From assembly GCA_964631745.1 (NCBI GenBank), contig CAZVWV010000022.1, positions 15,640 through 34,295 on the forward strand: a DNA stretch of 18,656 bases. The letters run 5' to 3'. The notes beneath the pieces were generated by a model. It did not search any database. It worked only from the letters and a program-made list of their open reading frames with translations, and was not told where the DNA came from. The stretch comes from an uncultured Bdellovibrionales bacterium. Lineage in GTDB: Bacteria > Bdellovibrionota_C > UBA2361 > JBGSMV01. Shown one piece after another: positions 5,332 through 16,879 of this stretch; the first letter of the stretch is position 1, and every line of letters begins with the position of its first letter. The translations under genes were made by a program, and so were the position numbers.

Positions 5332-5510
5332 CTCAAGCGGGCTTTTGGTTCCGGTCGGCCCACATTCCGCGACGTGAGTGTACCGATCTTTATTCCCCTT
5401 CCCAAATCGATTTGGATTGGGCTAGTACTTGTGGAGCCTTGGTCAAAACGCAGAAACCCATAGACTTTTTGCCAAACAACCCAAGCTTACAAATATGTTG
5501 AGATGGGCGG

Positions 5511-5609
5511 CATAACACCCGAATTCTCCCGTCAGCGGGGCGCGACCACTTTGGGTAATTTGGCTTGACTAAATGGCCCCGCTGCGGGAGATTCGGCAAC
5601 ACATTAGCT
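5511..5609 (+). repeat. attC-like site, family 1 copy A
   Basis: cATAACa ... CCGAaTTCTCCCGtCAGCGGGGC ... TTGACT ... GCCCCGCTGCGGGAGATTCGG ... cATTAGC. One of four ~95-bp copies (see 9575, 16385, 16779) that are about 80-90% identical. Imperfect dyad, with extra bases only in the 5' arm. Confidence 0.7.
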
Positions 5610-5629
5610 TGCTTGTATGTGATGGTATT

Positions 5630-6040
5630 ATGATGGCCCGAGACATTAGTAAAGTTTTTTGTATGACCGCAGCTCTTTCAAGCTTCGCGCTTGGAGTAAC
5701 CGGTTGTGATAACTTGAATCCTGGATCCGATCCTTCATTTTTGGGAAGAATAGGTACCGCTGACTTATATCTTAAGGAGATTGGCGGTAGGAGTTACTTA
5801 GTCGTAGACGACGATCCTGGCACTGCTTGCATAGAACATCACCCAAAATCAAAATTAGATAACATTGCCCACAGCTTTAGCAGTCAACTTGAGGGGAAGG
5901 CTGGCGACGTTGAGCTCTATACAGTTGAGGTCGATGGCACCAAATATCTTTTATCTCTAAACTACCTTACGAATCGCGGCCATGGATGTGATTTAATACT
6001 GATCCCAGAAGGGGCAAGTGGCGACACTCTCGCAAGATAA
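5630..6040 (+). CDS. Cassette-borne small lipoprotein, function unknown
   Basis: MMARDISKVFCMTAALSSFALGVTGC signal with lipobox. TAA stop at 6038-6040 is embedded in the GATAAC R'' box of the next attC. I take the ATG at 5630 because the track's ATG at 5573 lies inside attC-A. Confidence 0.5.
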   Translation: MMARDISKVFCMTAALSSFALGVTGCDNLNPGSDPSFLGRIGTADLYLKEIGGRSYLVVDDDPGTACIEHHPKSKLDNIAHSFSSQLEGKAGDVELYTVEVDGTKYLLSLNYLTNRGHGCDLILIPEGASGDTLAR

Positions 6041-6132
6041 CACCGGCCCGAAACTGACCGCGCCCCTTGAGTACTCGTGGCGCCATGATATTATATCTGG
6101 GGCGCGGCAGTTTTGGCCGCGAACCGTTATCC
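6035..6132 (+). repeat. attC-like site, family 4 copy a
   Basis: GATAACACCGGCCCGAAACTGACCGCGCCCC ... GGGGCGCGGCAGTTTTGGCCGCGAACCGTTATCC. About 85% identical to the copy at 9005-9101. Unpaired bases in the left arm. Confidence 0.65.
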
Positions 6133-6139
6133 ACTCATT

Positions 6140-6610
6140 ATGAACCAAACTAAAGCCGAGTATTACAAGAGCTTGCCGGCCAAGAGAATGGGCGCTGGCG
6201 TTCTTTTCTTTAATGATCAAAATGAACTCTTGCTCGTGCAACCAACCTACAAAGACACTTGGGAAATTCCAGGTGGCATTGTTGAACTAAGCGAATCACC
6301 GCGTGATGCAGTGCTCCGCGAAGTTCATGAGGAGCTAGGTTTAAAGATTGAACCTGAACTACTTAATTTTACATGCATTGAATATATGTCTGCGGGCAAA
6401 GAGATCTCGGAGTCCTTAATGTTTGTATTCTCGGGAGGGGTGCTTACTGAAAACATTATTAACCAGATTAACTTAGAATCTTCCGAACTCAAATCATTTA
6501 AGTTTGTTCCACCGAGTAGTATCACTGAATTTCTCGGACCAATTCTCGGGTCGAGAATCATAAAATGTCTTGAATCATCTAGTTGCTTTTACTCGGAAAA
6601 CAAATACTAG
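6140..6610 (+). CDS. NUDIX hydrolase
   Basis: Canonical Nudix box GGIVELSESPRDAVLREVHEELGL (Gx5Ex7REUxEExGU). I take the ATG at 6140 because the track's TTG at 6113 lies inside the attC. The TAG stop lies 5 nt before the next R''. Confidence 0.85.
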   Translation: MNQTKAEYYKSLPAKRMGAGVLFFNDQNELLLVQPTYKDTWEIPGGIVELSESPRDAVLREVHEELGLKIEPELLNFTCIEYMSAGKEISESLMFVFSGGVLTENIINQINLESSELKSFKFVPPSSITEFLGPILGSRIIKCLESSSCFYSENKY

Positions 6611-6613
6611 AGT

Positions 6614-6712
6614 GGATAACAAGCCGGTGCACTTGATGCGAAACTCTTGGCTTTTCCGGGTGTTTTGGGGCACTATTGGAGAGTTTCGCACAAGTGACCC
6701 TAAACTTTATCT
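6614..6712 (+). repeat. attC-like site, family 6
   Basis: GATAAC at 6615-6620. Arms GCACTTGaTGCGAAACTCTtGGC and GGAGAGTTTCGCACAAGTGA, with a ~26-nt loop. Variant R' is CTTTATC. Confidence 0.5.
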
Positions 6713-6721
6713 TCCTAACTT

Positions 6722-7276
6722 TTACTCACGCCCAAAACCGATCTTTCCCTTTCTCCCTCTCTGCATCGGTTCCTTCGGTTGAGCGTTAATTAACTCCCGA
6801 ATGCTATTGAACACCACTTTAAATTGGGCGTCATAACGCCGCTCTAGTTCGTCTAATCGTTTCGCGAACTCTTTGTTACTTGCTAGAATCTGCCGCATCC
6901 GGACAAACGCTCTGATGATCGCTATATTCACATGAATAGCTCTCTCACTATTCAAAACACTGGAAAGCATTGAAATTCCGTGCTCAGTGAACGCGTATGG
7001 CAGGTTTCGTCGGCCAGGCTTACCACTTGAGGTCACAATTTGTGACCGTAAAGCCGTGTATTCTTGGCTAGTTAGCTGAAACATGAAGTCCGCCGGGAAT
7101 CTTTCCACGTTTCGCTTTACAGCCTGTACCAGCGCCTTCGTTCTTACTTGGTAAAGTCTGGCTAGATCCTCGTCCAGCATTACCTTCTCACCTCTAATGA
7201 AGTAAATTGATTGCTCCAGCCGTTCAACAGGTATTACAGAACTGTTCTTTTTATTCATCGTTTCCCAAACTATCAT
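6722..7276 (-). CDS. ORF6N-domain (KilA-N-like / antirepressor-type DNA-binding) protein
   Basis: N-terminal IYFIRGEKVMLDEDLARLYQVRTKALVQAVKRNVERFPADFMFQLT is the ORF6N signature. The ORF is inverted within its cassette and sits next to the family-2 attC. Confidence 0.75.
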   Translation of the reverse strand: MIVWETMNKKNSSVIPVERLEQSIYFIRGEKVMLDEDLARLYQVRTKALVQAVKRNVERFPADFMFQLTSQEYTALRSQIVTSSGKPGRRNLPYAFTEHGISMLSSVLNSERAIHVNIAIIRAFVRMRQILASNKEFAKRLDELERRYDAQFKVVFNSIRELINAQPKEPMQRGRKGKIGFGRE

Positions 7277-7302
7277 GCCATTATCCGCTTAGACAACGCG
7301 GA

Positions 7303-7381
7303 AGATAACCATTGAATTCACGATATTTCGCGCTTTAGAATCAGTTTGGCGCGAAAATCGTGATTCAACAGAACGTTGGAC
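7303..7381 (+). repeat. attC-like site, family 2 copy a
   Basis: GATAACC ATTGAATTCACGATATTTCGCGC ... GGCGCGAAAATCGTGATTCAACA GAACGTTGGAC. The R' GTTGGAC is a perfect GTTRRRY. Confidence 0.65.
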
Positions 7382-7436
7382 TGAGCCGCGCAGTAGCGCG
7401 GAGGATCCTAAGCGAGAATTTGAATCGTAAGAGTAA

Positions 7437-7464
7437 GACCGGCACCGACCGGTCATTTTTTTTT
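7437..7464 (+). terminator. Rho-independent terminator at the 5' end of a cassette
   Basis: GACCGG-CACCGA-CCGGTC hairpin followed by a T9 run. It lies 60 nt after the cassette boundary within a conserved leader (7382-7465). A weaker copy lies at 14433-14515. Confidence 0.6.
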
Positions 7465-7645
7465 GCGAAAAGCGTGAGGATGTGTGCCGGTGGTTCAAGT
7501 CCCATCGCCGCCCCGACCGCCCGAACCTAGTGCCGAACCTAGTGTAGCTGAAAAGTAGAAAAGAATCTTGGCGAAAGTTCCATCCCTGATGGTGTAAAAG
7601 AGACCTGACTAAAGAAACTCATTTACAACCATCAGGGAGGAATTC

Positions 7646-8233
7646 ATGAACGATAAAAAAAGTACGCCACTTAGAGAGAAAATGAAAGCGGATTTAATGC
7701 TTCGGAATTATTCTAAGCCTTCTGAAGAGTTATATCTGTTTCATGTCAGGCGCTTTGCACAACACTATCACAAATCCCCAGGACATCTTGGACTAGACGA
7801 GATCCGGAGCTACCTGACGTACCTGCGCCAAGAAGCCAACGTATCGCAGTCATCGTATAAGCAAACGGTGGCAGCGCTCAAAGACGGCAACGTCTCTTTC
7901 TCCTACAAAGATTACAGAACTAACGAAAAGAAATTGATGACGCTGCCTGCTGTAGAGTTTATTCGGAGATTTCTGCTGCATGTGCTTCCAAACAAGTTCG
8001 TGAGGGTGCGCTACTACGGGTTCCTGACCAGGGCAAAGAAACTTGCCGCTCTGAGCACTATTAGAGAGGCGTTGGAGACCCATTCTCAAGCCCCGCCACC
8101 AAAACCTGCCACTACGCCCCATAGACACTGCTGCCCGGCCTGCAAGCTCGGGAAATTGGTCCACATTGGCCAAGTCCCACGCTGTTCGATTCCAGGCACT
8201 AGTCCACCAGCGCAACATACAGCCCTTTCTTAG
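7646..8233 (+). pseudogene. Degenerate chimeric ORF: tyrosine-recombinase (IntI/Xer-type) SAM-like N-terminal domain joined to the C-terminal segment of an IS91-family (Y2 HUH) transposase
   Basis: Residues 8-80 (LREKMKADLMLRNYSKPSEELYLFHVRRFAQHYH...VSQSSYKQTVAAL) fit the recombinase N-terminal SAM-like domain. Residues about 100-175 (EFIRRFLLHVLPNKFVRVRYYGFLTRAKK ... CCPACKLGKL) fit the Y2-transposase C-terminus with its terminal Zn motif. No catalytic domain sits between them. Confidence 0.45.
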
Positions 8234-8267
8234 CCAATCGCTCTTAGCTATACTAACTTCAATCGTT

Positions 8268-8394
8268 GGAGGCTGCGCGGCCCAGTCCAACGGGGTGTCG
8301 AGCCGCGATTCTCAGGCGAGAACGCTGCGGCAAGTTGGCACTCCTTGGCTGATAATCGCGGCCCAACACTAAACATTATCCCCTTTAGGCAGCC
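8268..8394 (+). repeat. attC-like site, family 3 copy 1; it has an extended outer palindrome
   Basis: GCGCGGCCCA GTCCAAC ... GAGCCGCGATTCTCAGGCGA ... GGCTGATAATCGCGGCCC AACACTAAACATTATCC. About 80% identical to 14966-15086. The 10 nt outside R'' are the reverse complement of the 10 nt that follow R' at the cassette start (7382-7391). Confidence 0.55.
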
Positions 8395-8663
8395 AGTTTT
8401 CTCTTGAGAACCTTAATCTCATTTTCAATCTGTTCAAGTCTCGAGGCAGCCGTCACTTTATCCGACATGCTTTCACTCAGAGTCCTGTTAATTAGCCGCT
8501 GATAAGGAATTCCACTCTCATCAGCCATAGCTCTTAGCTTTGCAAGAGTTTCGGCATTGATATTGATTGTAATTTTTATGCTCTTCTGGCGAGCCATCGC
8601 AGAACGTATTCGCTTGGTTTCAGCCCTATCGATTTTAAGATTTTTTAGGTTTGGTTTTTTCAT
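8385..8663 (-). CDS. brnA: BrnA antitoxin (CopG/RHH-type)
   Basis: MKKPNLKNLKIDRAETKRIRSAMARQKSIKITININAETLAKLRAMADESGIPYQRLIN. Starts at the internal Met of the track ORF and overlaps the end of brnT by about 29 nt. Confidence 0.7.
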   Translation of the reverse strand: MKKPNLKNLKIDRAETKRIRSAMARQKSIKITININAETLAKLRAMADESGIPYQRLINRTLSESMSDKVTAASRLEQIENEIKVLKRKLAA

Positions 8664-8922
8664 TGTATATTCTCCTAAACTCTCGCCATTCGGCCGACCC
8701 ATAAATTCGTACTTTTCCTTCTCGCCTTGTAAACCGAGTCGTAAGTATCTTCCCCGAACTCGATCTCCCCAACCAATAAAAACGCTCCTCATCCTGAGAA
8801 TGCTTATCATCTCTGATGGCAAATCCATCAGGATCGGAAAAAGACTCCGCGGCTTCGGAAAAACTCACCTTGTGCTTCCTAAGGTTTTCTTTAGCTTTGC
8901 CGGCGTCCCACTCGAAATCCAT
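8635..8922 (-). CDS. brnT: BrnT toxin (DUF497 ribonuclease family)
   Basis: MDFEWDAGKAKENLRKHKVSFSEAAESFSDP...DDKHSQDEERFYWLGRSSSGKILTTRFTRREGKVRIYGSAEW matches the BrnT pattern (FEWD..K...N..KHGVSF.EA, HS..EERF). The toxin lies upstream of the antitoxin, as in BrnTA. Confidence 0.8.
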   Translation of the reverse strand: MDFEWDAGKAKENLRKHKVSFSEAAESFSDPDGFAIRDDKHSQDEERFYWLGRSSSGKILTTRFTRREGKVRIYGSAEWREFRRIYNEKTKPKKS

Positions 8923-9004
8923 ATAAGCATGATTACCATACCTATGTGTATTTTACCATATAAACTGTAAGTTGGTGAAGATTTATTTTTTGGTTCCACG
9001 CAGG

Positions 9005-9101
9005 GGATAACACCGACCTTAAACTGACCGCGCCCATTGATTAGGGTTGCCAGTATGGTACCATTATGGGGCGCGGCAGTTTAGGCCGCAAAACGTTAGG
9101 C
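9005..9101 (+). repeat. attC-like site, family 4 copy b
   Basis: GATAACACCGACCTTAAACTGACCGCGCCC ... GGGGCGCGGCAGTTTAGGCCGCAAAACGTTAGGC. Perfect R' GTTAGGC. Extra T and A in the left arm. Confidence 0.7.
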
Positions 9102-9120
9102 AGCCTACGGAGAGAAACTT

Positions 9121-9580
9121 ATGCGAATGGTCCTGGACGAGAATTTCAAAATATCCATCGAGGGACGGAATGATTTCGATGGACGAATCCTATTTCTGAG
9201 CAAGAACTCTGGAATTGCGAGGATTGGCAACAAGGGCTGGGATTTTCGCGATGCAATTTTAGGCAGTGGTGAGGATTTTGCCATCGAGCTAATGGCGAAT
9301 GGGCAAGCAGCAGCTACCTTATCGTTTGAAAGAAATTCAGGCCATTCGATCGCGGTCCCTAGAAAGGGCGATAAAAATTGAGAATTTTCAATTGAACCTC
9401 GACCCAAACACTGAAGAGTGGATTCTTGAAAGTAAACAACACAAGCATGGATTCGGACAGCGAATTGGTTCTCGGATCGTCCTTAACATTAACGACGAGC
9501 ATTTAGTTCAGGAAATGGCGGAGGTAGTGGCGTTGAGTTTTATTGCTATTCAAGGCTGGGGCGGAATGAAGGCTGCCTAA
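9121..9580 (+). pseudogene. Unknown cassette gene apparently split by a +1 frameshift at an A5 run
   Basis: ORFs 9121..9381 and 9299..9580 are in frames 1 and 2. They overlap around GGGCGATAAAAATTGAG (about 9368-9375). Joined they give a protein of about 152 aa. The TAA stop at 9578-9580 is embedded in the CCTAAC R'' box. Confidence 0.45.
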
Positions 9581-9675
9581 CATCCGAGTGCTCCCGACAG
9601 CGGGGCCGCGGTCTGCTTTAGTAGTTTGTATTGACTTGAAGGCCCCGCTGCGGGAGATTCGGCATCACGTTGGAC
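9575..9675 (+). repeat. attC-like site, family 1 copy B
   Basis: GCCTAAC at 9575-9581 is a perfect RYYYAAC. CCGAGTgCTCCCGACAGCGGGGCCGCG ... TTGACTTGAAGGCCCCGCTGCGGGAGATTCGGCATCAC GTTGGAC. Perfect R' at 9669-9675. Confidence 0.8.
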
Positions 9676-9750
9676 TGCAAGTATTTTTGATTAGGAAGTC
9701 TGCCCATGATACACTTTTTATTATTAATTTAACATAATAGAGGTATTATT

Positions 9751-10134
9751 ATGAACTCACCACAAATGGAGTTTGCAGGAAATATCGGCGGATTACAAAA
9801 CTTTCTTAGCCAGTGTTCATCGGCAGCTTTGGCGATGGCAATACAACCAGAAATAACAAAAATTATGCAAAATCAATCCTTGGATTCCAATGCACCTTTA
9901 ACAGTGGATCTACTAAACACCTTGAGGCAGAGCTTATACAGTCGAAATGACGATCCAGATGCAAGACAAACAGATATTTTAATGATACTGGCCGATGCCT
10001 TGCGTGGAAAGGGCGTTTCGTCAGGGAATCCTATCGAAGATAGACTGCGTTTTGTAGAAATACTTCAAGATCAATTACAACGAAACGGCAGAGTCAATTT
10101 TCAGAGAGCACTCGCAGAGTCTATAGCAAGATAG
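9751..10134 (+). CDS. Hypothetical cassette protein (127 aa)
   Basis: ATG preceded by a GAGG-like Shine-Dalgarno within an AT-rich leader. No family recognised. Followed by a candidate attC at 10148-10235. Confidence 0.4.
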   Translation: MNSPQMEFAGNIGGLQNFLSQCSSAALAMAIQPEITKIMQNQSLDSNAPLTVDLLNTLRQSLYSRNDDPDARQTDILMILADALRGKGVSSGNPIEDRLRFVEILQDQLQRNGRVNFQRALAESIAR

Positions 10135-10147
10135 TGCAGGCTAACAA

Positions 10148-10235
10148 GTGGGCGCACTGGAGGCAAAATCCTGGGGCTTTCTTAGGAATTTTGTGACTGT
10201 TATGATGATTTTGCCCCAGTGGTTCTAAACGTTAA
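10148..10235 (+). repeat. Candidate attC-like site, family 9
   Basis: GGCTAAC ... GCGCACTGGaGGC / GCCCCAGTGGTTC imperfect dyad, with one extra A in the left arm. R' is AAACGTTAACC. Confidence 0.4.
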
Positions 10236-10256
10236 CCCCTTTTAGCAGTAATACCC
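10235..10256 (+). repeat. 22-bp direct copy of the tip of the Tn3-family IRR (ACCCCTTTTAGCAGTAATACCC)
   Basis: Identical to 12822-12843 and in the same orientation. It starts 5 nt after a cassette boundary and 13 nt before the tnpA ATG. Confidence 0.5.
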
Positions 10257-10268
10257 CTCCTTGACCAA

Positions 10269-12743
10269 TTGATGGAACCAAATGACGCGAGTTCGGCGAA
10301 GCTCACACGGTATCAGCTTACGCTCATGAAGAAATTCGCTCACTCCATTGCGCCATCTGCAATAAAGGAAAATGTCGAGCAGCTTGTAGCGCTGCGTGAA
10401 CTTTACCTTGAGATTCGAGCAGTATTAGAAGAGCTTGATCTTACCCGCGAAGGCATTCGTTACTTTGCGACCTACGTTTTAAAATCGCCTACTTGGAGGC
10501 TTTCTGCAAGAGAGGACCATGACCGATACTTGCACATGATAACTTTTGTTGCTCATCAGTACTATCAACTTCAAGATATCCTTGTCGATGTTTTGCTCAG
10601 CTCTGTAACGGCAATTAACAACGGCGCACGTCGTGAGCACAAAGATGGTTGCTACGAACAGCGGTCTCAAAAAAATAGCTCCCTTGCAAATGTGATTGAA
10701 ACAGTTGAGAAACTTCTCTCTGGCTATGCTGAGATTCACGATATCTTGCACAAAAAGGGACTACACTCGGATAAAAAAATAGAGCTTATCAAGGCTCTAC
10801 TTGATGAAAATGAAGCTGCTATCCGTAACGCCAGAAAGCATGTCATTAACCTCAAACAGGCATCTCAGCAGGTGGTTGAGAATGATTTCTACGCAATTCT
10901 GGAATCAAAGTCGGTCAAACTTCAAAATAGAGTCGCAGGGATTGTAAAAACGCTTGAGTTTAGATCTGACTGCTCTGATAAGCTGCTCTACAGCGCCATA
11001 TGTCACTATAGAGAGCACGCTACCCTCACTGAATCTGCACCATACGATTTCTTAAGTCCGGTTGAGCAGAATCTCTTGCACAGAGACGGTGGAAAGTTTC
11101 GAGTTCCGCTCTATAAAGTGCTGCTCTTTGGAAGAATCGCTGAAGCAATTCGGGCCGGGACCCTTAACTTAGACCACTCATACAAGTATCGCACTTTAGA
11201 AGAGTATCTAATCGCGCGGTGCGCTTGGGATGAGGGAAAAGATGTCCTCATAGAGCGCGCAAGCCTCCAAGTTGTTGAGAACTGTCCTAAAGTGCTTACC
11301 GATCTTCAAACCCGCCTAGCGCAATATTATCAGCTTACAAATCAGCGAATTTTAGATGGCGGCAATGAATTTGTTTCGGTCAAAAGTACCGGCGCTTATA
11401 CCGTGCAAACCCCGCCAGTAGCCGAGAAGATGGCTCCTGGCCTGCCTGAGTACTTTCCAGAGACTAAATTTATTTCTCTGCTTGAAATCCTTTCCACAAC
11501 CAATCAAGTAACAAATTTTCTAGCAGAATTTAAACGCTCAAAATTAAAGTATAATCGCGCACGACCAAGCGATCGGTCCTTTTTTGCCGGTTTACTCGGA
11601 TTTGGGTGCGGCATCGGTATAAAAAGAATCGCTCAAATCTCAAACCTCATCGACGAAGATGAGCTTGAAAGAACCGTAAACTGGCATTTTTCTTTAGATA
11701 ATGTTGAAGCTGCCAACGATAGAATTTTAGCCTTCATGGATAAGCTTGATCTCCCCTCGGTTTATCTCCAAGACCCAGAGTGGCGGCACACCTCAAGTGA
11801 CGGCCAAAAGGTAGAGGTGGCCGTGCCTTCGCTTAATGCCAATTACTCGTTTAAATATTTCGGCCAAGGTAAGGGCGTGAGCGTCTATAGCTTCATTGAT
11901 GAGAGACATTTTCTCTTTCACTCAACGGTAATTAGCTCAGCGGAACGGGAGGCCGCATATGTAATCGACGGCTTGATGCACAATGATGTTGTACAGAGCG
12001 ATATTCATTCAACTGATACTCACGGCTATACTGAAGTAATATTTGGCGCGACGCATCTTTTGGGATTCATGTTCGCCCCTCGAATCAAGAGTTTAGGGCG
12101 ACAACACCTCTATACCTTTCCTGGCAATACAAAAAAGCTGTACAAAGAAATGAAATACCCTATCCTGCCAGATGGCGTTATCAACATTCAATTAATCGCA
12201 GATAACTGGGATGAAATTCTGCGATTCGTGGCTACCATCAAACTAAAAGAAACCCCTGCTTCGCAGCTATTTAGACGACTTAACTCATACTCAAAATCGC
12301 ACCCTTTATGGGACGCTCTCAAAGAGTTTGGAAAAATTATAAAATCGATTTTCATCCTTCACTACATCGACGATCTCAATCTTCGCCAGGCAGTTGAGAA
12401 GCAGATGAACAAGATCGAAAGTGCTCAGAAGTTTTCAAACGCCGTGGCGTTCGGATCACAAGAATTTAGGCAGGCAGACCGAGAGGAGCAAAATATTGTC
12501 GCTGCTTGTCGCAGGCTTATTAAGAACGCCATCATCTGTTGGAACTACCTATACCTTTCGCAAAAAATTGTAGATGCGCCGAGCCCAGCGCAGAAAAATG
12601 AAATTATTGATGCCGTTCAAAACGGCTCAGTGGTCGCATGGCGGCACATTAATTTCTACGGGGAGTATGATTTCTCAGATGAAAAGCTCAGGGATTCTGT
12701 TGGAATTACTGCCCCTTCGGTTAGGAGTCTTAGAGTGGCTTGA
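10269..12743 (+). mobile_element. tnpA: Tn3-family transposase TnpA, N-terminally truncated relative to full-length (~1000 aa) TnpA
   Basis: 824 aa. Family motifs: RYLHMITFVAHQYYQLQDILVDVLL; SSDGQKVEV; HSTDTHGYTEVIFGATHLLGFMFAPRIKSLGRQHLYTF (DDE region). The first ~170 aa, the N-terminal DNA-binding region, are absent. No resolvase or res site nearby. Confidence 0.85.
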
Positions 12744-12805
12744 AATTCAAAAATGGGAGGGTCGTTTTTGAGTTAAGTTGCTGATCTGGCATAAGAATTC
12801 GGAAA

Positions 12806-12843
12806 TTCTGTGGCGGTTTTCACCCCTTTTAGCAGTAATACCC
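12806..12843 (-). mobile_element. Tn3-family 38-bp terminal inverted repeat (IRR)
   Basis: Read from the tip it is GGGTATTACTGCTAAAAGGGGTGAAAACCGCCACAGAA. It shares GGG at the tip, GCT at 11-13 and GAAAAC at 23-28 with the Tn3 IR (GGGGTCTGACGCTCAGTGGAACGAAAACTCACGTTAAG). It lies 63 bp past the tnpA stop. Confidence 0.55.
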
Positions 12844-12968
12844 AACGTTCGCTAGCGCAGCTTCTTTGCTTTTCAGTACGCTCGAAAGCATCGCTACTCC
12901 CTGTTCCGAGAAGGAGTACGGAGGAGTCCTACGGCCGCCCCAAGATCTTGATATGCCAAATTGGCATT

Positions 12969-13172
12969 TCAAGTCGGCAAGTTCTTGATTTGACAGCCGA
13001 AACATAAAATCCCCGGGAATCGATCTTTGTTTCGCCTAACCGCACGATTTAAATGCCCCGTTTCGACACAATAGAGTTCAGCCAAATCGGAATCTAGCAT
13101 CACGCGCTGCCCTCTGATCAGATAAATCAGGCTAGAAATCTCTTTTTTGATAACTGCGCTGGTTTTTGGCAT
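12969..13172 (-). pseudogene. Truncated ORF6N-domain gene; paralog of 6722..7276
   Basis: [38 protein letters not shown] aligns to ORF6N copy 1 up to 'RFP', then diverges and terminates at 67 aa. Its family-2 attC is retained upstream. Confidence 0.6.
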
Positions 13173-13233
13173 ATATATGTGAGTTTACCTTTAGTCAATG
13201 GAGGCGCCAAGGTCATATTGCAACAACGGTGCT

Positions 13234-13330
13234 GGCTAACAATTGAATTCACGAGATTTCGCGCCACTACCTTTAGTAGTTGCTTTGACATCCAGTTGGC
13301 GCGAAACTCCTGATTCAACATCACATTATG
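13234..13330 (+). repeat. attC-like site, family 2 copy b
   Basis: GGCTAAC AATTGAATTCACGAGATTTCGCGCC ... GGCGCGAAACTCCTGATTCAACA TCACATTATG. Variant R' is CATTATG. Confidence 0.6.
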
Positions 13331-13362
13331 CGCCCGCTCCACTGCTCATAAATTTAGCTGTT

Positions 13363-13725
13363 ATGCTTAATTCCACCTCACGAAAAAATCTAGGTAAAAT
13401 ATTCTTATGTTTGGTCATTATTTGGGTGGCAAAAGAAGGATATGAGTGGACTCGTTGTTTCTGCAGTACGGCAACGGATACGCGGGTGCTGATTGCGCAG
13501 TGCACCGAAGTTAAAAGAGAACTTCAACTTTATAAAGACAAACATGGTGCTTGGCCTAGGTCCTTGTTCGATGCGGGTATTTGGCCCATTAGCTATTTTG
13601 GAATTTGGCGTTATCGCCCGTCCTCCCTAGATTTTGATGGCCCAATGTTGGAAATTGGTTGCAGCGGCTGGCATATAGTAGGAACCTCGCCTGATGAAAA
13701 TGGTGATTGCGGAGCTTGGGATTGA
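13363..13725 (+). CDS. Hypothetical small protein with one N-terminal TM helix (weak pseudopilin-like motif)
   Basis: IFLCLVIIWVA hydrophobic helix; AQCTEVKRELQLYKDKHGAWPRSL loosely resembles a GspG/pilin segment. I take the ATG at 13363 because the track's start lies inside the attC. No Shine-Dalgarno. Confidence 0.35.
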   Translation: MLNSTSRKNLGKIFLCLVIIWVAKEGYEWTRCFCSTATDTRVLIAQCTEVKRELQLYKDKHGAWPRSLFDAGIWPISYFGIWRYRPSSLDFDGPMLEIGCSGWHIVGTSPDENGDCGAWD

Positions 13726-13732
13726 GTGCTCG

Positions 13733-13832
13733 CATAACCACCGCGTTGAAGGGAAACGCGACTCGCGAGCGGATTTCGAAATTTTAAGCGTTTGAGTGGG
13801 GCGCGTCCCCATCAGGCGGCAACCCATTATGC
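13733..13832 (+). repeat. attC-like site, family 8
   Basis: GCATAACC ... TGAAGGGAAACGCGaCtCgCG / GAGTGGGGCGCGTCCCCATCA imperfect dyad. Variant R' CATTATGCGC, the same 10-mer as at 13323-13332. Confidence 0.45.
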
Positions 13833-13833
13833 G

Positions 13834-14043
13834 CTAGCGCTTCCTGAGCTTGTTAGGATCTCGGCGGCAGTGGAAAACTGATACGACCACGATATGTTCG
13901 GTTTCTATCGAGAAAAATACCCCGAAGGGAAACTTTTTTAGCAAACATCGGCGAAGATCGTCGAAAGCAACTGAATATAACATAGGAGTTCTTGCAATCT
14001 TTGCCAAAGCAACATCAAGCGACCGAATAAATTCCGATCCCAA
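13834..14043 (-). CDS. ParE/RelE-family toxin, short (possibly N-terminally truncated)
   Basis: ...DDLRRCLLKKFPFGVFFSIETEHIVVVSVFHCRRDPNK matches the ParE C-terminal core. The ORF begins at TTG with an in-frame stop just upstream. It leaves an 80-bp gap to the antitoxin and lacks the usual ~25-aa N-terminal helix. Confidence 0.6.
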   Translation of the reverse strand: MGSEFIRSLDVALAKIARTPMLYSVAFDDLRRCLLKKFPFGVFFSIETEHIVVVSVFHCRRDPNKLRKR

Positions 14044-14123
14044 ACCATGTGCTTGCGTTTCCTACCAACGCGCAGCGGCTTCTAGTTCAGCAGAAGCCTT
14101 TTGGGTAAATCTAATTTCCACAA

Positions 14124-14345
14124 TTAAAGGCTGATTTTCTGCTTGAGATCCGACCATGAAATGCCGGTATCGGGGTCTCTCCTATAATGCGCAAGTCTAG
14201 CGCGCAATTCCACTTTTTGGTCTTCGCTGAGCTCAAGTGAATCTGGGAGCTGCTCTATGCTGTCCCAAATATCCTGAACAAGTTGAATTCGCTCTGAAAC
14301 GCTTAAGCCAAGAATCTCTTCTAGAAGTTCCTTTTCTTTGGGCAT
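14124..14345 (-). CDS. Antitoxin, 'putative addiction module component' (TIGR02574-like), partner of the ParE-like toxin
   Basis: LSVSERIQLVQDIWDSIEQLPDSLELSEDQKVELRARLAHYRRDPDTGISWSDLKQKI fits the LSxEERLxLIxxLWDSL...AxLDRRLAxYxxDP pattern of this antitoxin family. Located upstream of the toxin. Confidence 0.65.
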   Translation of the reverse strand: MPKEKELLEEILGLSVSERIQLVQDIWDSIEQLPDSLELSEDQKVELRARLAHYRRDPDTGISWSDLKQKISL

Positions 14346-14364
14346 CTGAGTATTGTATAGCTAA

Positions 14365-14432
14365 GCGCATAACAACGCAATCAATAGACATTTTGCTTCG
14401 CAAAATGCTATTGATTGCGCGATACGTTGGAC
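14365..14432 (+). repeat. Short attC-like site (~68 bp), family 7
   Basis: GCATAAC AACGCAATCAATAGaCATTTTGC ttcg GCAAAATGCTATTGATTGCGCGAT ACGTTGGAC. Perfect R' GTTGGAC. Extra base in the left arm. Confidence 0.7.
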
Positions 14433-14515
14433 TGAGCCGCGCTGGCGCGCGGAGGGGTGTAATTGAAACATTTATGGTTGAATTGGAATGATTCGTAAGA
14501 GACGGTCATTTTTTG
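14433..14515 (+). repeat. Conserved cassette-start leader (second copy) with CCGCGC-N4-GCGCGG hairpin and a degenerate terminator
   Basis: TGAGCCGCGCTGGCGCGCGGAGG...GAATTGGAATGATTCGTAAGAGACGGTCATTTTTTG, against 7382-7465 TGAGCCGCGCAGTAGCGCGGAGG...GAATTTGAATCGTAAGAGTAAGACCGGCACCGACCGGTCATTTTTTTTT. Confidence 0.6.
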
Positions 14516-14965
14516 TATACGAGATTAGGTGAAACGCCACTTCATGGCGCTGAAGGCGTCTTGCCTGACTTTTAATTGCGAATAGCGAGAAGCCTACTAA
14601 TTTCACTTGATATCTTTTGAAGAGCTGGCAGCATTGCTTCCCAAAAAGAGAAGCGGGCCTGTCGCGACTGCTTACTTACGTGCAGTCAGGAATGGAGATT
14701 CCTTTTTTACCGCCAGGGATGGCGGCGCCGCTTTAGACATAAACTGAGAGCGCGAATTGTGCTCAGACTCGGTGGGTAGGCCGAAGGCTTTTTGAAAGAA
14801 AAGCTATATTTCTTGGGGTGGGTTGTGCCTAATTGCAAAACTGAGAGATTTTTTATTACGTTAAATCAAATAGTTATTACTCTCCACATAAAAAACGCTG
14901 ACCAATCCCCATAGGCATAATCAGGCGTTGATTAACTATCTGGTTCCTTCAATAATCAAACCATT

Positions 14966-15086
14966 GTAGGCAGCGCGGCACAGTCCAACCGGGTGTCGAG
15001 CCGCGCTTCTCAGGCGAAGTTGCGGCACTGACTTCTCCCGTTTTGGCTGAGAACCGCGGCCCAACACTAAACATTAGGCAGACAGA
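14966..15086 (+). repeat. attC-like site, family 3 copy 2
   Basis: GCGCGGCACA GTCCAAC CGGGTGTCGAGCCGCGCTTCTCAGGCGA ... GGCTGAGAACCGCGGCCC AACACTAAACATTAGGCAG. Confidence 0.55.
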
Positions 15087-15091
15087 GCATT

Positions 15092-15883
15092 ATGCGTTGC
15101 GATTTTCCTATCCTTGAATACGATTCGGACCAGACAGCCCGTATCGAACCCACTGCTGTAGTGCCGGATGGCACGCTGCCTGAGATATGTATCATCTCGT
15201 TTTTCGCCGATGCTATTGAAAGGTTCGTCTCCAACGCCAACGCGACTGTGGCCTGTCGTTTTGACACGATGATAAGCTCGCATCCCGTCTATGAATTCTC
15301 CTACAAGGAGCGGCGGTTGGCCCTACTGCCAGCCGGGCTCGGTGGACCCCTTTCTGTTGGTCTTCTCGAGCACGCTATTGCTATGGGCTCGCGGTATTTT
15401 GTGGTGTGTGGCGCAGCGGGTGTTCTCAACAAAGAGATTGCAGCGGGACACCTGATTTTGCCAACAGCGGCGATACGGGATGAAGGAACGTCGTACCACT
15501 ACCTCCCGCCAGCTCGCGAAGTTGTGCCAAGTGCCGCAGCAGTAGCGGCTATTGGGAAAGTACTTGAAGATGCTAATATCCCGGTCGTTCGCGGAAAAAC
15601 ATGGACCACGGATGCATACTTTCGGGAAACGCGACGTAAGATTGAGTTGCGCCAGTCCGAGGACTGTATTTGTGTCGAAATGGAGGCGGCTGCCCTGTTT
15701 TCCGTCGCGGTGTTTCGCGGGGTTGATCTCGGCTATATCCTTTACGGAGGAGATTCCGTTGCCGGTGTTTGGGACCCACGAGAAGAGTTTGACCGTGCTG
15801 TGGTTCGCGAGAGGCTGATTCGCCTTTCCTGCGAAGCATGCTGTTTACTAGCCGATCAAACAAACGTTCTGAGGCATAAGTGA
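15092..15883 (+). CDS. Nucleoside phosphorylase-I family protein (PNP/UDP/MTAN-type phosphorylase domain)
   Basis: VEMEAAALFSVA matches the family's VEMEAAA[IL] active-site motif. The upstream segment LALLPAGLGGPLSVGLLEHAIAMGSRYFVVCGAAGVL...ILPTAAIRDEGTSYHY aligns with the DeoD/MTAN substrate-binding core. The ATG lies inside CATTATGCG. Confidence 0.7.
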   Translation: MRCDFPILEYDSDQTARIEPTAVVPDGTLPEICIISFFADAIERFVSNANATVACRFDTMISSHPVYEFSYKERRLALLPAGLGGPLSVGLLEHAIAMGSRYFVVCGAAGVLNKEIAAGHLILPTAAIRDEGTSYHYLPPAREVVPSAAAVAAIGKVLEDANIPVVRGKTWTTDAYFRETRRKIELRQSEDCICVEMEAAALFSVAVFRGVDLGYILYGGDSVAGVWDPREEFDRAVVRERLIRLSCEACCLLADQTNVLRHK

Positions 15884-15888
15884 GGGCT

Positions 15889-15983
15889 GCCTAACAATTG
15901 GAGCGAGCGGAGGAAAGGCCGCGAATGAAATTGATGATTTGTAGATTTGAAGTGGCCTTTCCCCGCTCCTCCTCGCCATTATC
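15889..15983 (+). repeat. attC-like site, family 5
   Basis: GCCTAAC (perfect RYYYAAC) AATTGGAGCGAGCGGaGGAAAGGCC ... GGCCTTTCCCCGCTCCTCCTCGC CATTATC. Confidence 0.55.
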
Positions 15984-16012
15984 CCGCCCTTTCGTTTGCA
16001 ACTTGTAATTTA

Positions 16013-16390
16013 ATGAATCAGGCCTTAACCCCCTATAGAGATGTCTTTCTGCGGTTGTTGAATGCTCTCCTGTTTCTGAGCTTAGTGGGTTTTCATGTCA
16101 TGCCAAAGTTATCGCTTATTATTATCGGCAATCAGCAACCTTCCGTTTTTCACATCGTCGCATTCGTAGTTTCAATTACGTCGGGATGTATTGCAGCGAA
16201 GTGGATAATAAAGCGGTTCTCCTTTGTTGAGCATTTAATTGTTTCATTTTGCCTTCTCCCACTTACAATTTGTGTGGCGGTAAGTTTACGGGAGGGTTTA
16301 ATATGGATTCTTATATTAGCTCTTTTCTCGCTTTTTAGTTATCTTCCTTACCGAAGAATCCAAAAAACAAGACCACCAAGCGCGGGATAA
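16013..16390 (+). CDS. Small integral membrane protein (about 4 TM helices), unknown function
   Basis: 125 aa with four hydrophobic segments. The TAA stop at 16388-16390 is embedded in the GATAAC R'' of attC-C. I take the ATG at 16013 because the track's start lies inside the preceding attC. Confidence 0.45.
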   Translation: MNQALTPYRDVFLRLLNALLFLSLVGFHVMPKLSLIIIGNQQPSVFHIVAFVVSITSGCIAAKWIIKRFSFVEHLIVSFCLLPLTICVAVSLREGLIWILILALFSLFSYLPYRRIQKTRPPSAG

Positions 16391-16485
16391 CCACCGAGTA
16401 CTCCCGATAGCGAGGCCGCGTTCTGCTTTGGTAATTTGAGTTGACTTGGAGGCCCCGCTGCGGGAGACTCGGCAAAACGTTAACC
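16385..16485 (+). repeat. attC-like site, family 1 copy C
   Basis: GATAACCA CCGAGTaCTCCCGAtAGCGaGGCCGCG ... TTGACTTGGAGGCCCCGCTGCGGGAGACTCGGCAAAAC GTTAACC. Confidence 0.75.
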
Positions 16486-16507
16486 CTCATTTAAAAATTC
16501 ATAGCAG

Positions 16508-16777
16508 ATGGGTATTGCAACCACTCTAATTATCTACGTCGCGCTCTTTCTCGTCATACGCCAGTCAGTTTTTATTATTGGCGAGAATCAGCGCGGAGTA
16601 ATTGTCCGGCTAGGGCGTTTCGAAAGAATTCATTATCCCGGGTTGCTTATTGTGGTTCCTTTCATGGACCGGGTTCACAAGATAGACTTGCCTGCACAAG
16701 TACCTGGTTGGGAGAAACTTTCTAAGGAGCAGCTTGATGCTAAGGTTCAGGAAATTGCTTTGAGCAAGATAGAATGA
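16508..16777 (+). CDS. SPFH/band-7 domain N-terminal fragment (89 aa)
   Basis: TM helix, then IIGENQRGVIVRLGRFERIHYPGLLIVVPFMDRVHKIDL, the start of the SPFH (stomatin/HflK/C) fold. Far shorter than functional SPFH proteins. The TGA stop lies 2 nt before the R'' of attC-D. Confidence 0.55.
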   Translation: MGIATTLIIYVALFLVIRQSVFIIGENQRGVIVRLGRFERIHYPGLLIVVPFMDRVHKIDLPAQVPGWEKLSKEQLDAKVQEIALSKIE

Positions 16778-16778
16778 G

Positions 16779-16879
16779 GGTTAACCACCGAGTTCTCCCG
16801 ACAGCAGGGCCACGATCATTAGTGGTAGTTCGAATTGACTAAGAAGCCCCGCTGCGGGAGACTCGGCAAAACGTTATGT
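16779..16879 (+). repeat. attC-like site, family 1 copy D (last attC of the array)
   Basis: GGTTAACCA CCGAGTtCTCCCGACAGCaGGGCCaCG ... TTGACTAAGAAGCCCCGCTGCGGGAGACTCGGCAAAAC GTTATGT. The R' overlaps the pepD stop codon. Confidence 0.75.

Follow-up and report, generated by a model that had tools for sequence, protein, structure and literature searches.

The DNA considered here is a stretch of 18,656 nucleotides from an uncultured Bdellovibrionales bacterium (NCBI GenBank assembly GCA_964631745.1, contig CAZVWV010000022.1), analysed over its full length and referred to as the window. Inside an array of integron-type gene cassettes it carries the right-hand part of a transposon of the Tn3 family: a 5'-truncated transposase gene (tnpA), a complete right inverted repeat (IRR) behind it and, in front of it, a 22-bp direct copy of the outer part of the same repeat. 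On its left side this material adjoins the attC site of an upstream cassette, and on its right side the remains of a gene of the ORF6N type. With a modest leaning, the region is read here as an inactive remnant of an uncharacterised Tn3-family subgroup, lying inside a reverse-oriented ORF6N cassette and shaped by a nested copy and then a deletion.

The truncated gene, its inverted repeat and the interrupted ORF6N gene

A single long open reading frame (ORF) is present between the two copies of the 22-mer. It starts at TTG 10269 or ATG 10272 on the + strand and ends at 12743 (stop codon 12741-12743). The product has a full DDE_Tnp_Tn3 domain (PF01526, E=1.6e-114, profile positions 1-389 of 389), whereas no match to DUF4158, and thus no N-terminal DNA-binding part, was found in it with Pfam. 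The closest full-length relatives, P0002 (87% identical) and P0003 (86% identical), are both 1020 amino acids (aa) long and have DUF4158 as well as PF01526. In alignment with them the homology begins at codon 191, and the truncated gene occupies 10257-12743 with the frame intact over 824 aa. The loss of the 5' end of a Tn3-family transposase gene, proposed in a preliminary description of this DNA, is thereby confirmed. The loss amounts to 190 codons, or 196 when counted to the first ATG, instead of the approximately 170 residues estimated there, and tnpA codons 1-190 are absent from the whole window (tblastn with residues 1-200). Residues 387-999 of P0002, the catalytic half, match the Tn4430 transposase (PDB 7QD4/7QD8) with an E value of about 1e-62. 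In Tn4430 TnpA, DBD1 is the key determinant of specificity for the inverted repeat (IR) and contacts IR bp 21-36 (PMC9579193). An N-terminal motif of TnpA is also required for beta-clamp binding (PMC11417375). Since the truncated TnpA is devoid of the first 190-196 residues (DBD1/DUF4158) and the 22-bp stub lacks the IR from bp 23 onwards, both are expected to be inert, and neither should be able to support transposition. The preliminary description considered that TnpA could still start from ATG 10272; the product would be without DBD1 (PMC9579193), and no promoter-like site was found before this ATG. A cointegrate-resolution module (resolvase or tyrosine recombinase with res/IRS) was likewise not found in or beside 10232-12843. 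The GC content of the insert equals that of its surroundings.

Transposons of the Tn3 family have terminal inverted repeats of at least 38 bp with a GGG(G) tip, and their canonical target duplication is 5 bp. The IRR of the remnant is located at 12796-12843 (+ strand), its tip at 12843 being 100 bp past the tnpA stop, and its conserved core (GAAATTCTGTGGCGGTTTTC), at 12802-12821, is the single occurrence of this inner sequence in the window. The repeat was aligned with the left inverted repeat (IRL) and the IRR of an intact relative present on a 19-kb contig, L002 (Logan SRR21359179), which also encodes P0002. The reverse complement of window 12780-12843 aligns with both L002 repeats from the first base, and the tip GTAATACCC equals both ends of the L002 element and is also seen in two other contigs, L021 and L017. 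These tips bear out the earlier recognition of a genuine IRR, while the length of 38 bp given for it was too short, the alignments indicating at least 42 bp and up to ~50 bp. It was also considered that the tip could be at GGGG 12826, with the 17 bp beyond it as target DNA. This was ruled out because the ends in L002, L021 and L017 all reach ...GTAATACCC.

Exactly two copies of the 22-mer (ACCCCTTTTAGCAGTAATACCC), identical in every base, are present in the window, one at 10235-10256 and one at 12822-12843 and each on the + strand (0 expected in 200 shuffles), as had been noticed from the beginning. No further copy was found on either strand of the window at up to three mismatches. When one mismatch is allowed, the repeat extends to 25 bp with an identity of 24/25, TTAACCCC... 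at 10232 (10232-10256) corresponding to TTCACCCC... at 12819 (12819-12843). The left copy represents right IR positions 22 to 1 in the same orientation as the IRR. The base preceding it, A10234, does not derive from the IR, as IR position 23 is a conserved G (C on this strand). Instead of the two inverted IRs of a Tn3-family transposon, the window thus contains one complete IRR and a direct 22-bp stub, and neither an IRL nor another inverted copy of the IR was found in it at up to three mismatches. An inverted IRL, or a 22-mer unlinked to transposon ends, had been named in the preliminary description as what would speak against it; neither was found in the window, where the sole other copy of the 22-mer is the IRR tip itself. 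Judging from these alignments, the 22-mer is the outermost tip of the transposon's own IR.

What lies immediately to the right of the stub carries most of the argument. When 10200-10420 is aligned at the DNA level with tnpA from L002 and L003, the homology begins at CTCCTTGACC, i.e. at base 10257, directly after the 22-mer. This base corresponds to L191 of the 1020-aa protein, and the IR tip thus meets tnpA codon 191 to the base. An IR tip which abuts unrelated DNA to the base indicates transposase strand transfer. The codon-191 joint carries the signature of a joint made by transposase, and a random deletion or templated filler ending exactly at the tip appears unlikely. The direct stub, as far as can be judged from the DNA, points to a second transposase-mediated joint into tnpA and not simply to a deletion.

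Short repeats can mis-join assembly graphs, and the source is a single 34-kb NCBI contig, which raises the question of whether the 22-25-bp repeat caused a chimeric join of metagenomic sequence. The alternative path through such a graph would leave a lone 22-bp stub in the cassette array and put the truncated tnpA and the IRR into a 2.6-kb circle or tandem, which is odder than the contig as given. In addition, this path keeps the joint between the IR tip and codon 191, and the repeat is shorter than typical final k-mers. An assembly artefact is therefore considered extremely improbable.

To the right of the IRR tip, the ORF6N paralog is found as a pseudogene at 12844-13172 on the - strand. Its codons 1-54 are in frame, after which, according to three-frame translation, a 1-bp loss in the C-run 13011-13014 shifts the frame and leaves an ORF of 67 aa. 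In the shifted frame the homology runs to ...SKEAALANV, ending at 12844, which is codon 110 of ~171, and then into the IR. What is missing is thus ~61 C-terminal codons (roughly 200 bp) and a short 3' spacer. The gene had been taken to be cut off after about 50 codons, which is where the frameshift lies, and the statement that the transposon replaced most of an ORF6N cassette was overstated. Only profile positions 2-44 of 86 of the Pfam ORF6N domain are in frame in the first 57 aa of the paralog, while the intact ORF6N copy at 6722-7276, which was used in the alignment, has the complete domain in a protein of ~170-185 aa. The closest homologues (P0124-P0128) are 170-174 aa long and 78-83% identical, and read ...AALVNVQIMRAFV... 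at the point of interruption. The possibility that the paralog is a naturally short ORF6N ending at TAG 12853-12855, in which case nothing would have been replaced, was rejected: this TAG belongs to a frame without homology, whereas the frame with homology continues through AACGTT, and the homologues have 170-174 aa. The ORF6N cassette that hosts the remnant is itself decaying. The 1-bp loss in the C/G homopolymer could be a real mutation or a sequencing error.

Junctions and possible history of the remnant

On the left, the remnant adjoins the attC of the cassette with the ORF at 9751-10134. This attC covers 10139-10237 on the + strand, with R'' GGCTAAC at 10139-10145, R' GTTAACC at 10231-10237 and the crossover at G10231|T10232. 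Its end motif ...AAACG|TTA agrees with the other attC ends in the window. Judged by these 11 ends, the crossover is 2 nt to the right of the 10229|10230 first assigned to it, and the 22-mer starts 3 nt past it and not 5 nt. Because A10234 is not from the IR, the left breakpoint falls between 10234 and ~10239. It may lie within a microhomology (ACC/ACCCC) between the native cassette start TTAACC and the IR sequence TTCACCCC. Such a breakpoint is possible since GTTAACC is a legitimate R' box, which pairs with R'' GGCTAAC in the bottom-strand hairpin and is reused elsewhere in the array, in the cassette opening AAAACG|TTAACCC at 16476.

The history that we favour, a nested copy followed by a deletion, would comprise three steps. 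First, a complete element would have transposed into ORF6N. A second right end of the same element would then have been joined by transposase into tnpA at codon 191. This end may have come from a nested copy, from a tandem left by an unresolved cointegrate or sister copy, or from the element itself. In the last step, one illegitimate deletion would have extended from the first bases of the cassette (TTA or TTAACC, just past the upstream attC crossover) to position 23 of the second IR. With it the 3' end of ORF6N would have gone, as would the IRL, any cargo and tnpA codons 1-190, and of the second copy almost nothing would have been left. The preliminary description, in which a Tn3-family insertion into ORF6N was followed by a deletion or an aberrant transposase event, thus holds in outline; what it missed is the exact joint between the IR tip and codon 191.

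Several points weigh against this sequence of events. A single sequence does not reveal how many events took place or in which order. That an element should insert into a copy of itself conflicts with the target immunity of Tn3-family transposons, which normally suppresses such events and is regarded as a safeguard against self-destruction (PMC9579193). From its own R'' (GGCTAAC), the ORF6N cassette would be expected to start with TTAGCC and not TTAACC, so that the microhomology argument loses weight. The contig was probably assembled from a metagenome, and both junctions are known from the assembled sequence alone. Finally, the remnant is flanked by the hexamer AACGTT, which matches the duplication length of 6 bp in L002. 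With a nested copy and a deletion this match has to be a coincidence, the odds of which are roughly 1 in 1000 once a few registers are allowed for.

The left AACGTT (10228-10233) is in the attC R' core, 1 nt before the 22-mer, and the right one (12844-12849) directly follows the IRR tip. On the - strand the latter forms the native ORF6N codons N109-V110, close homologues reading ...AALVNVQIMRAF... here. Outside the attC cores there are only 3 occurrences of AACGTT in 18.6 kb. The palindrome flanks the whole remnant like a 6-bp target duplication, but A10234 offsets it by one base. With regard to the duplication length usual in the clade, no recognisable flanking duplications were found in L001, L004, L005, L006 and L016.

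The flanks would be meaningful if the unit 10234-12843 had been inserted whole by a transposase acting in trans, as a one-ended or rolling-circle product. The IRR would be the defined end, the other, 'variable' end would be 22 bp past a second IR tip, and AACGTT would be a true 6-bp duplication. As the target, either an attC R' core already fused to the truncated ORF6N or ORF6N itself can be envisaged, the 3' part of ORF6N in the latter case being lost afterwards via recombination between the two AACGTT copies (integrase pseudo-site or microhomology). Products of one-ended transposition carry target duplications. The only relative with both flanks, L002, has a 6-bp duplication, and here a rare hexamer directly follows the IRR tip and also stands 1 nt in front of the 22-mer. 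According to work cited in PMC4133298, Tn3-family elements are documented to undergo one-ended transposition in which the second endpoint is random. In the unit the right end is exact, and no inverted IR is present at the left end. Its AACGTT flanks fit a duplication, although A10234 offsets them, and they could also be due to chance. Such an insertion still requires a donor in which the IR tip had already been joined to tnpA codon 191. It would also have had to take place exactly at a prior deletion junction, or the duplication would have to happen to equal an attC core. A10234, which does not derive from the IR, stands between the hexamer and the 22-mer, the good GTTAACC R' box becomes a coincidence, and the right AACGTT is native ORF6N coding sequence. 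Owing to these extra coincidences, the models based on a duplication are ranked below a nested copy and a deletion, and whole insertion of the unit is regarded as unlikely.

The precise joint at codon 191 and the 22/22 identity of the stub to the resident IRR could also be obtained without a second copy, if codon 191 of tnpA was attacked in situ by the right (or left) end of the very element that carries it. In this scheme ~22 nt of the IR would have been copied from the joint and the broken chromosome end-joined to the upstream attC region, the left part of the element being lost. Autointegration demands fewer independent events than a nested copy and a deletion, and immunity has been described as a protection from self-destruction (PMC9579193). 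It is, however, purely a paper model which needs the rescue of a broken chromosome and leaves both the AACGTT flanks and A10234 unexplained. We know of no autointegration products of this sort described for Tn3-family elements. Autointegration is considered quite improbable. The wider idea is that the 2.6-kb unit is itself a transposase product. It would then be a one-ended or rolling-circle insertion (one unit length plus 22 nt) with a genuine 6-bp duplication in the attC R' core, or the autointegration footprint of an element escaping immunity. This wider idea is rather unlikely. If true, it would be evidence from nature for a side reaction of Tn3-family elements that has so far been seen mainly in plasmid assays of the 1980s, and the one-ended case would also hint that a Tn3-family transposase can be drawn to a folded attC.

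The involvement of the integron integrase (IntI) is suggested by the left breakpoint, which is at most 3 nt from a G|TT crossover, and by the AACGTT in ORF6N, which perfectly mimics an R' core. The left junction would then stem from recombination by IntI between the upstream attC and a secondary G|TT site, located either in the IR or in ORF6N. However, a crossover at the only GTT of the IR predicts AAACG|TTTTCACCCC, whereas AAACG|TTAACCCC is observed. Had the attC recombined with the right-hand AACGTT, the entire insert would have been lost; intI was not found in the window. Such a rearrangement is very improbable. The interplay between a replicative transposon and an attC site put forward in the preliminary description is not supported, as nothing ties the left breakpoint to the integrase; in the favoured history the nearness of the remnant to the attC is incidental, and there is no evidence for a functional interplay.

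With a nested copy and a deletion as the favoured history, the region would be ordinary transposon wreckage that involves no new transposon-integron mechanism and shows how a replicative transposon decays inside a cassette array. It would also provide one natural example of a Tn3-family IR tip joined into the tnpA of its own kind, an event that target immunity is thought to prevent. For annotation, the 824-aa ORF is to be treated as a truncated, non-functional transposase and the ORF6N paralog as a frameshifted, truncated pseudogene.

The surrounding cassette array

Approximately 12 attC sites of roughly five sequence types make up a CALIN-like cassette array at window 5508-16876. The array reads from left to right, with ORFs on the + strand, each followed directly by an attC-like repeat ending in ...AAC(G/A)|TT, and with cassettes that start at TT. 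Altogether 12 attC ends were examined in the window, and the repeat families D1-D8 cover them. As is typical of CALIN elements, successive attC sites have R''/R' boxes and bottom-strand hairpins, and a short ORF precedes each of them. Hairpins were formed by all five attC sites whose bottom strands were folded, four of them with z values of -3.1 to -4.2 and the site at 10139-10237 with a weaker one (z = -1.15). No intI was present among the large ORFs scanned in the window, which may simply stop short of it. The crossover base differs from the canonical G in five of the 12 attC ends, A|TT being found at 5606, 8378, 13327 and 15076 and T|TT at 6711.

The cassette of the ORF6N paralog has its own attC at 13234-13327 (+ strand), with R'' GGCTAAC and a degenerate R' (CACA|TTATGC). 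Its hairpin has z = -4.1, and its D3 and D8 repeats match the attC at 7300-7378. Both ORF6N cassettes of the window are preceded by one attC type (G[GC][CA]TAACAAG...), located at 6617-6711 and 10139-10237, and the two sites resemble each other. The same attC type precedes the closest ORF6N homologue in another metagenome contig (L018:3530-3625), where the genes upstream are different (NUDIX, an unknown 127-aa ORF and LysE). This pairing may be due to chance, or ORF6N may travel with that attC.

Elsewhere in the array, an ORF of 195 aa at 7646-8233 matches Phage_int_SAM_4 and the C-terminal part of Y2_Tnp, which suggests a fragment of a tyrosine recombinase or transposase; it is the sole such piece in the scanned ORFs. 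The start of its cassette (ACGTTGGACTGAGCCGCGC...) and its attC recur ~7 kb downstream around a shorter cassette (7373-8378 compared with 14424-15076).

Relatives of the element and comparison with known systems

An intact copy of the element was not found in the genome-contig collection, where the best hit had 59% identity as a partial match and ~50% over the full length, nor in the plasmid collection, in which the best match was 48% at the protein level and DNA matches were weak. The exact protein is linked to no recorded contig. The scan of metagenomes for the IR gave one real IR, that of L021, and the viral scan for the element yielded nothing. The most informative relative is the intact 7.5-kb element of L002, which occupies 5639-13163 and interrupts a DEAD/Helicase_C gene. 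Its left boundary reads GGGTATTACTGCTAAGTGGGGTGAAAACCGCCACAGAATTTCC... and its right boundary ...GAAATTCTGTGGCGGTTTTCGACCCGTTTAGCAGTTATACCC (at the level of the tips, GGGTATTACTGC... and ...GCAGTTATACCC), and excision of 5639-13163 together with 6 bp (CAAGGA) restores a continuous helicase ORF of 655 aa. The duplication is these 6 bp, or 5 bp, the canonical length, if one tip base is ambiguous. As cargo the element has a tyrosine recombinase (Phage_integrase), an RVT_1 reverse transcriptase and bAvd, a set of genes that looks like a diversity-generating retroelement. The window shares with L002 a TnpA 87% identical over the retained 824 aa, a stop-to-tip distance of 100 bp and the same IR (GGGTATTACTGCTAA..GGGGTGAAAACCGCCACAGAATTTC). 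Only the right 2.6 kb and a direct 22-bp stub are left here, however, while in L002 the two IRs are inverted, tnpA is full length and encodes DUF4158, and cargo and a clean duplication are present. L002 defines the ends of an undescribed Tn3-family subgroup with the tip GGGTATTAC, an IR of about 45-50 bp and retroelement-like cargo, and is of greater interest than the remnant. Another decayed copy of the subgroup, 84% identical, is found at L017:650-3427. Upstream of ~codon 145 its tnpA is degraded, and the gene contains in-frame stops. The IRR is still intact, with a single base of contig sequence beyond its tip.

A joint comparable to that at codon 191 was found in contig L015 (ENA ERZ24794656), where in a nested insertion at 2236-2345 a Tn3-family IRR tip (...GCTATAAAAACCCC) abuts a different Tn3-family tnpA at codon ~208, as estimated by reading the sequence against P0002. 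As in the window, a Tn3-family tip (...AAAAACCCC) is placed on a 5'-truncated tnpA, only 17 codons away from the position of the window joint, and both genes have the same orientation. In L015, however, the inserter is another member of the family, largely present, and no repeats are common to the two genes, whereas the stub in the window is identical to the resident IRR and only 22 bp of it is left. L015 can thus be regarded as a natural precedent, in which an IR tip of this family entered another tnpA close to the corresponding position, and the location of the two joints near codons 191 and 208 may reflect chance or a soft spot in tnpA. Recurrent truncation near codon 190 was also looked for among the TnpA hits without DUF4158 and rejected, as these were mostly frameshifts, decay and contig ends (L016, L017, L026, with L027 less clear-cut), the only genuine nested insertion being that of L015.

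Among well-known elements, Tn1721 consists of Tn1722 and a tet region at whose end there are a truncated tnpA and another IRR. Its two IRRs, with the resistance genes between them, are complete and functional, and it also has an IRL and an intact tnpA. Like Tn1721, the remnant combines the 3' part of a tnpA gene and the IRR belonging to it with another right IR that points the same way. In contrast to Tn1721, the second of these IRs amounts to a 22-bp stub that adjoins the truncated tnpA without any intervening DNA, and no functional component is left. Elements of the IS1111-attC group and group IIC-attC introns insert site-specifically inside attC sites, and do so repeatedly. The remnant likewise adjoins an attC core, but its only intact transposon joint is in ORF6N coding sequence, and on the attC side there is a single, apparently illegitimate breakpoint. 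Isolated or partial Tn3-family IRs also occur in genomes as solo IRs, TIMEs and one-ended products, the last of which have one IR end and one variable end (PMC4133298). TIMEs have two inverted IRs and can be mobilised (PMC4133298), whereas the stub described here is direct and without the part of the IR that is bound by DBD1, which in Tn4430 is bp 21-36 (PMC9579193).

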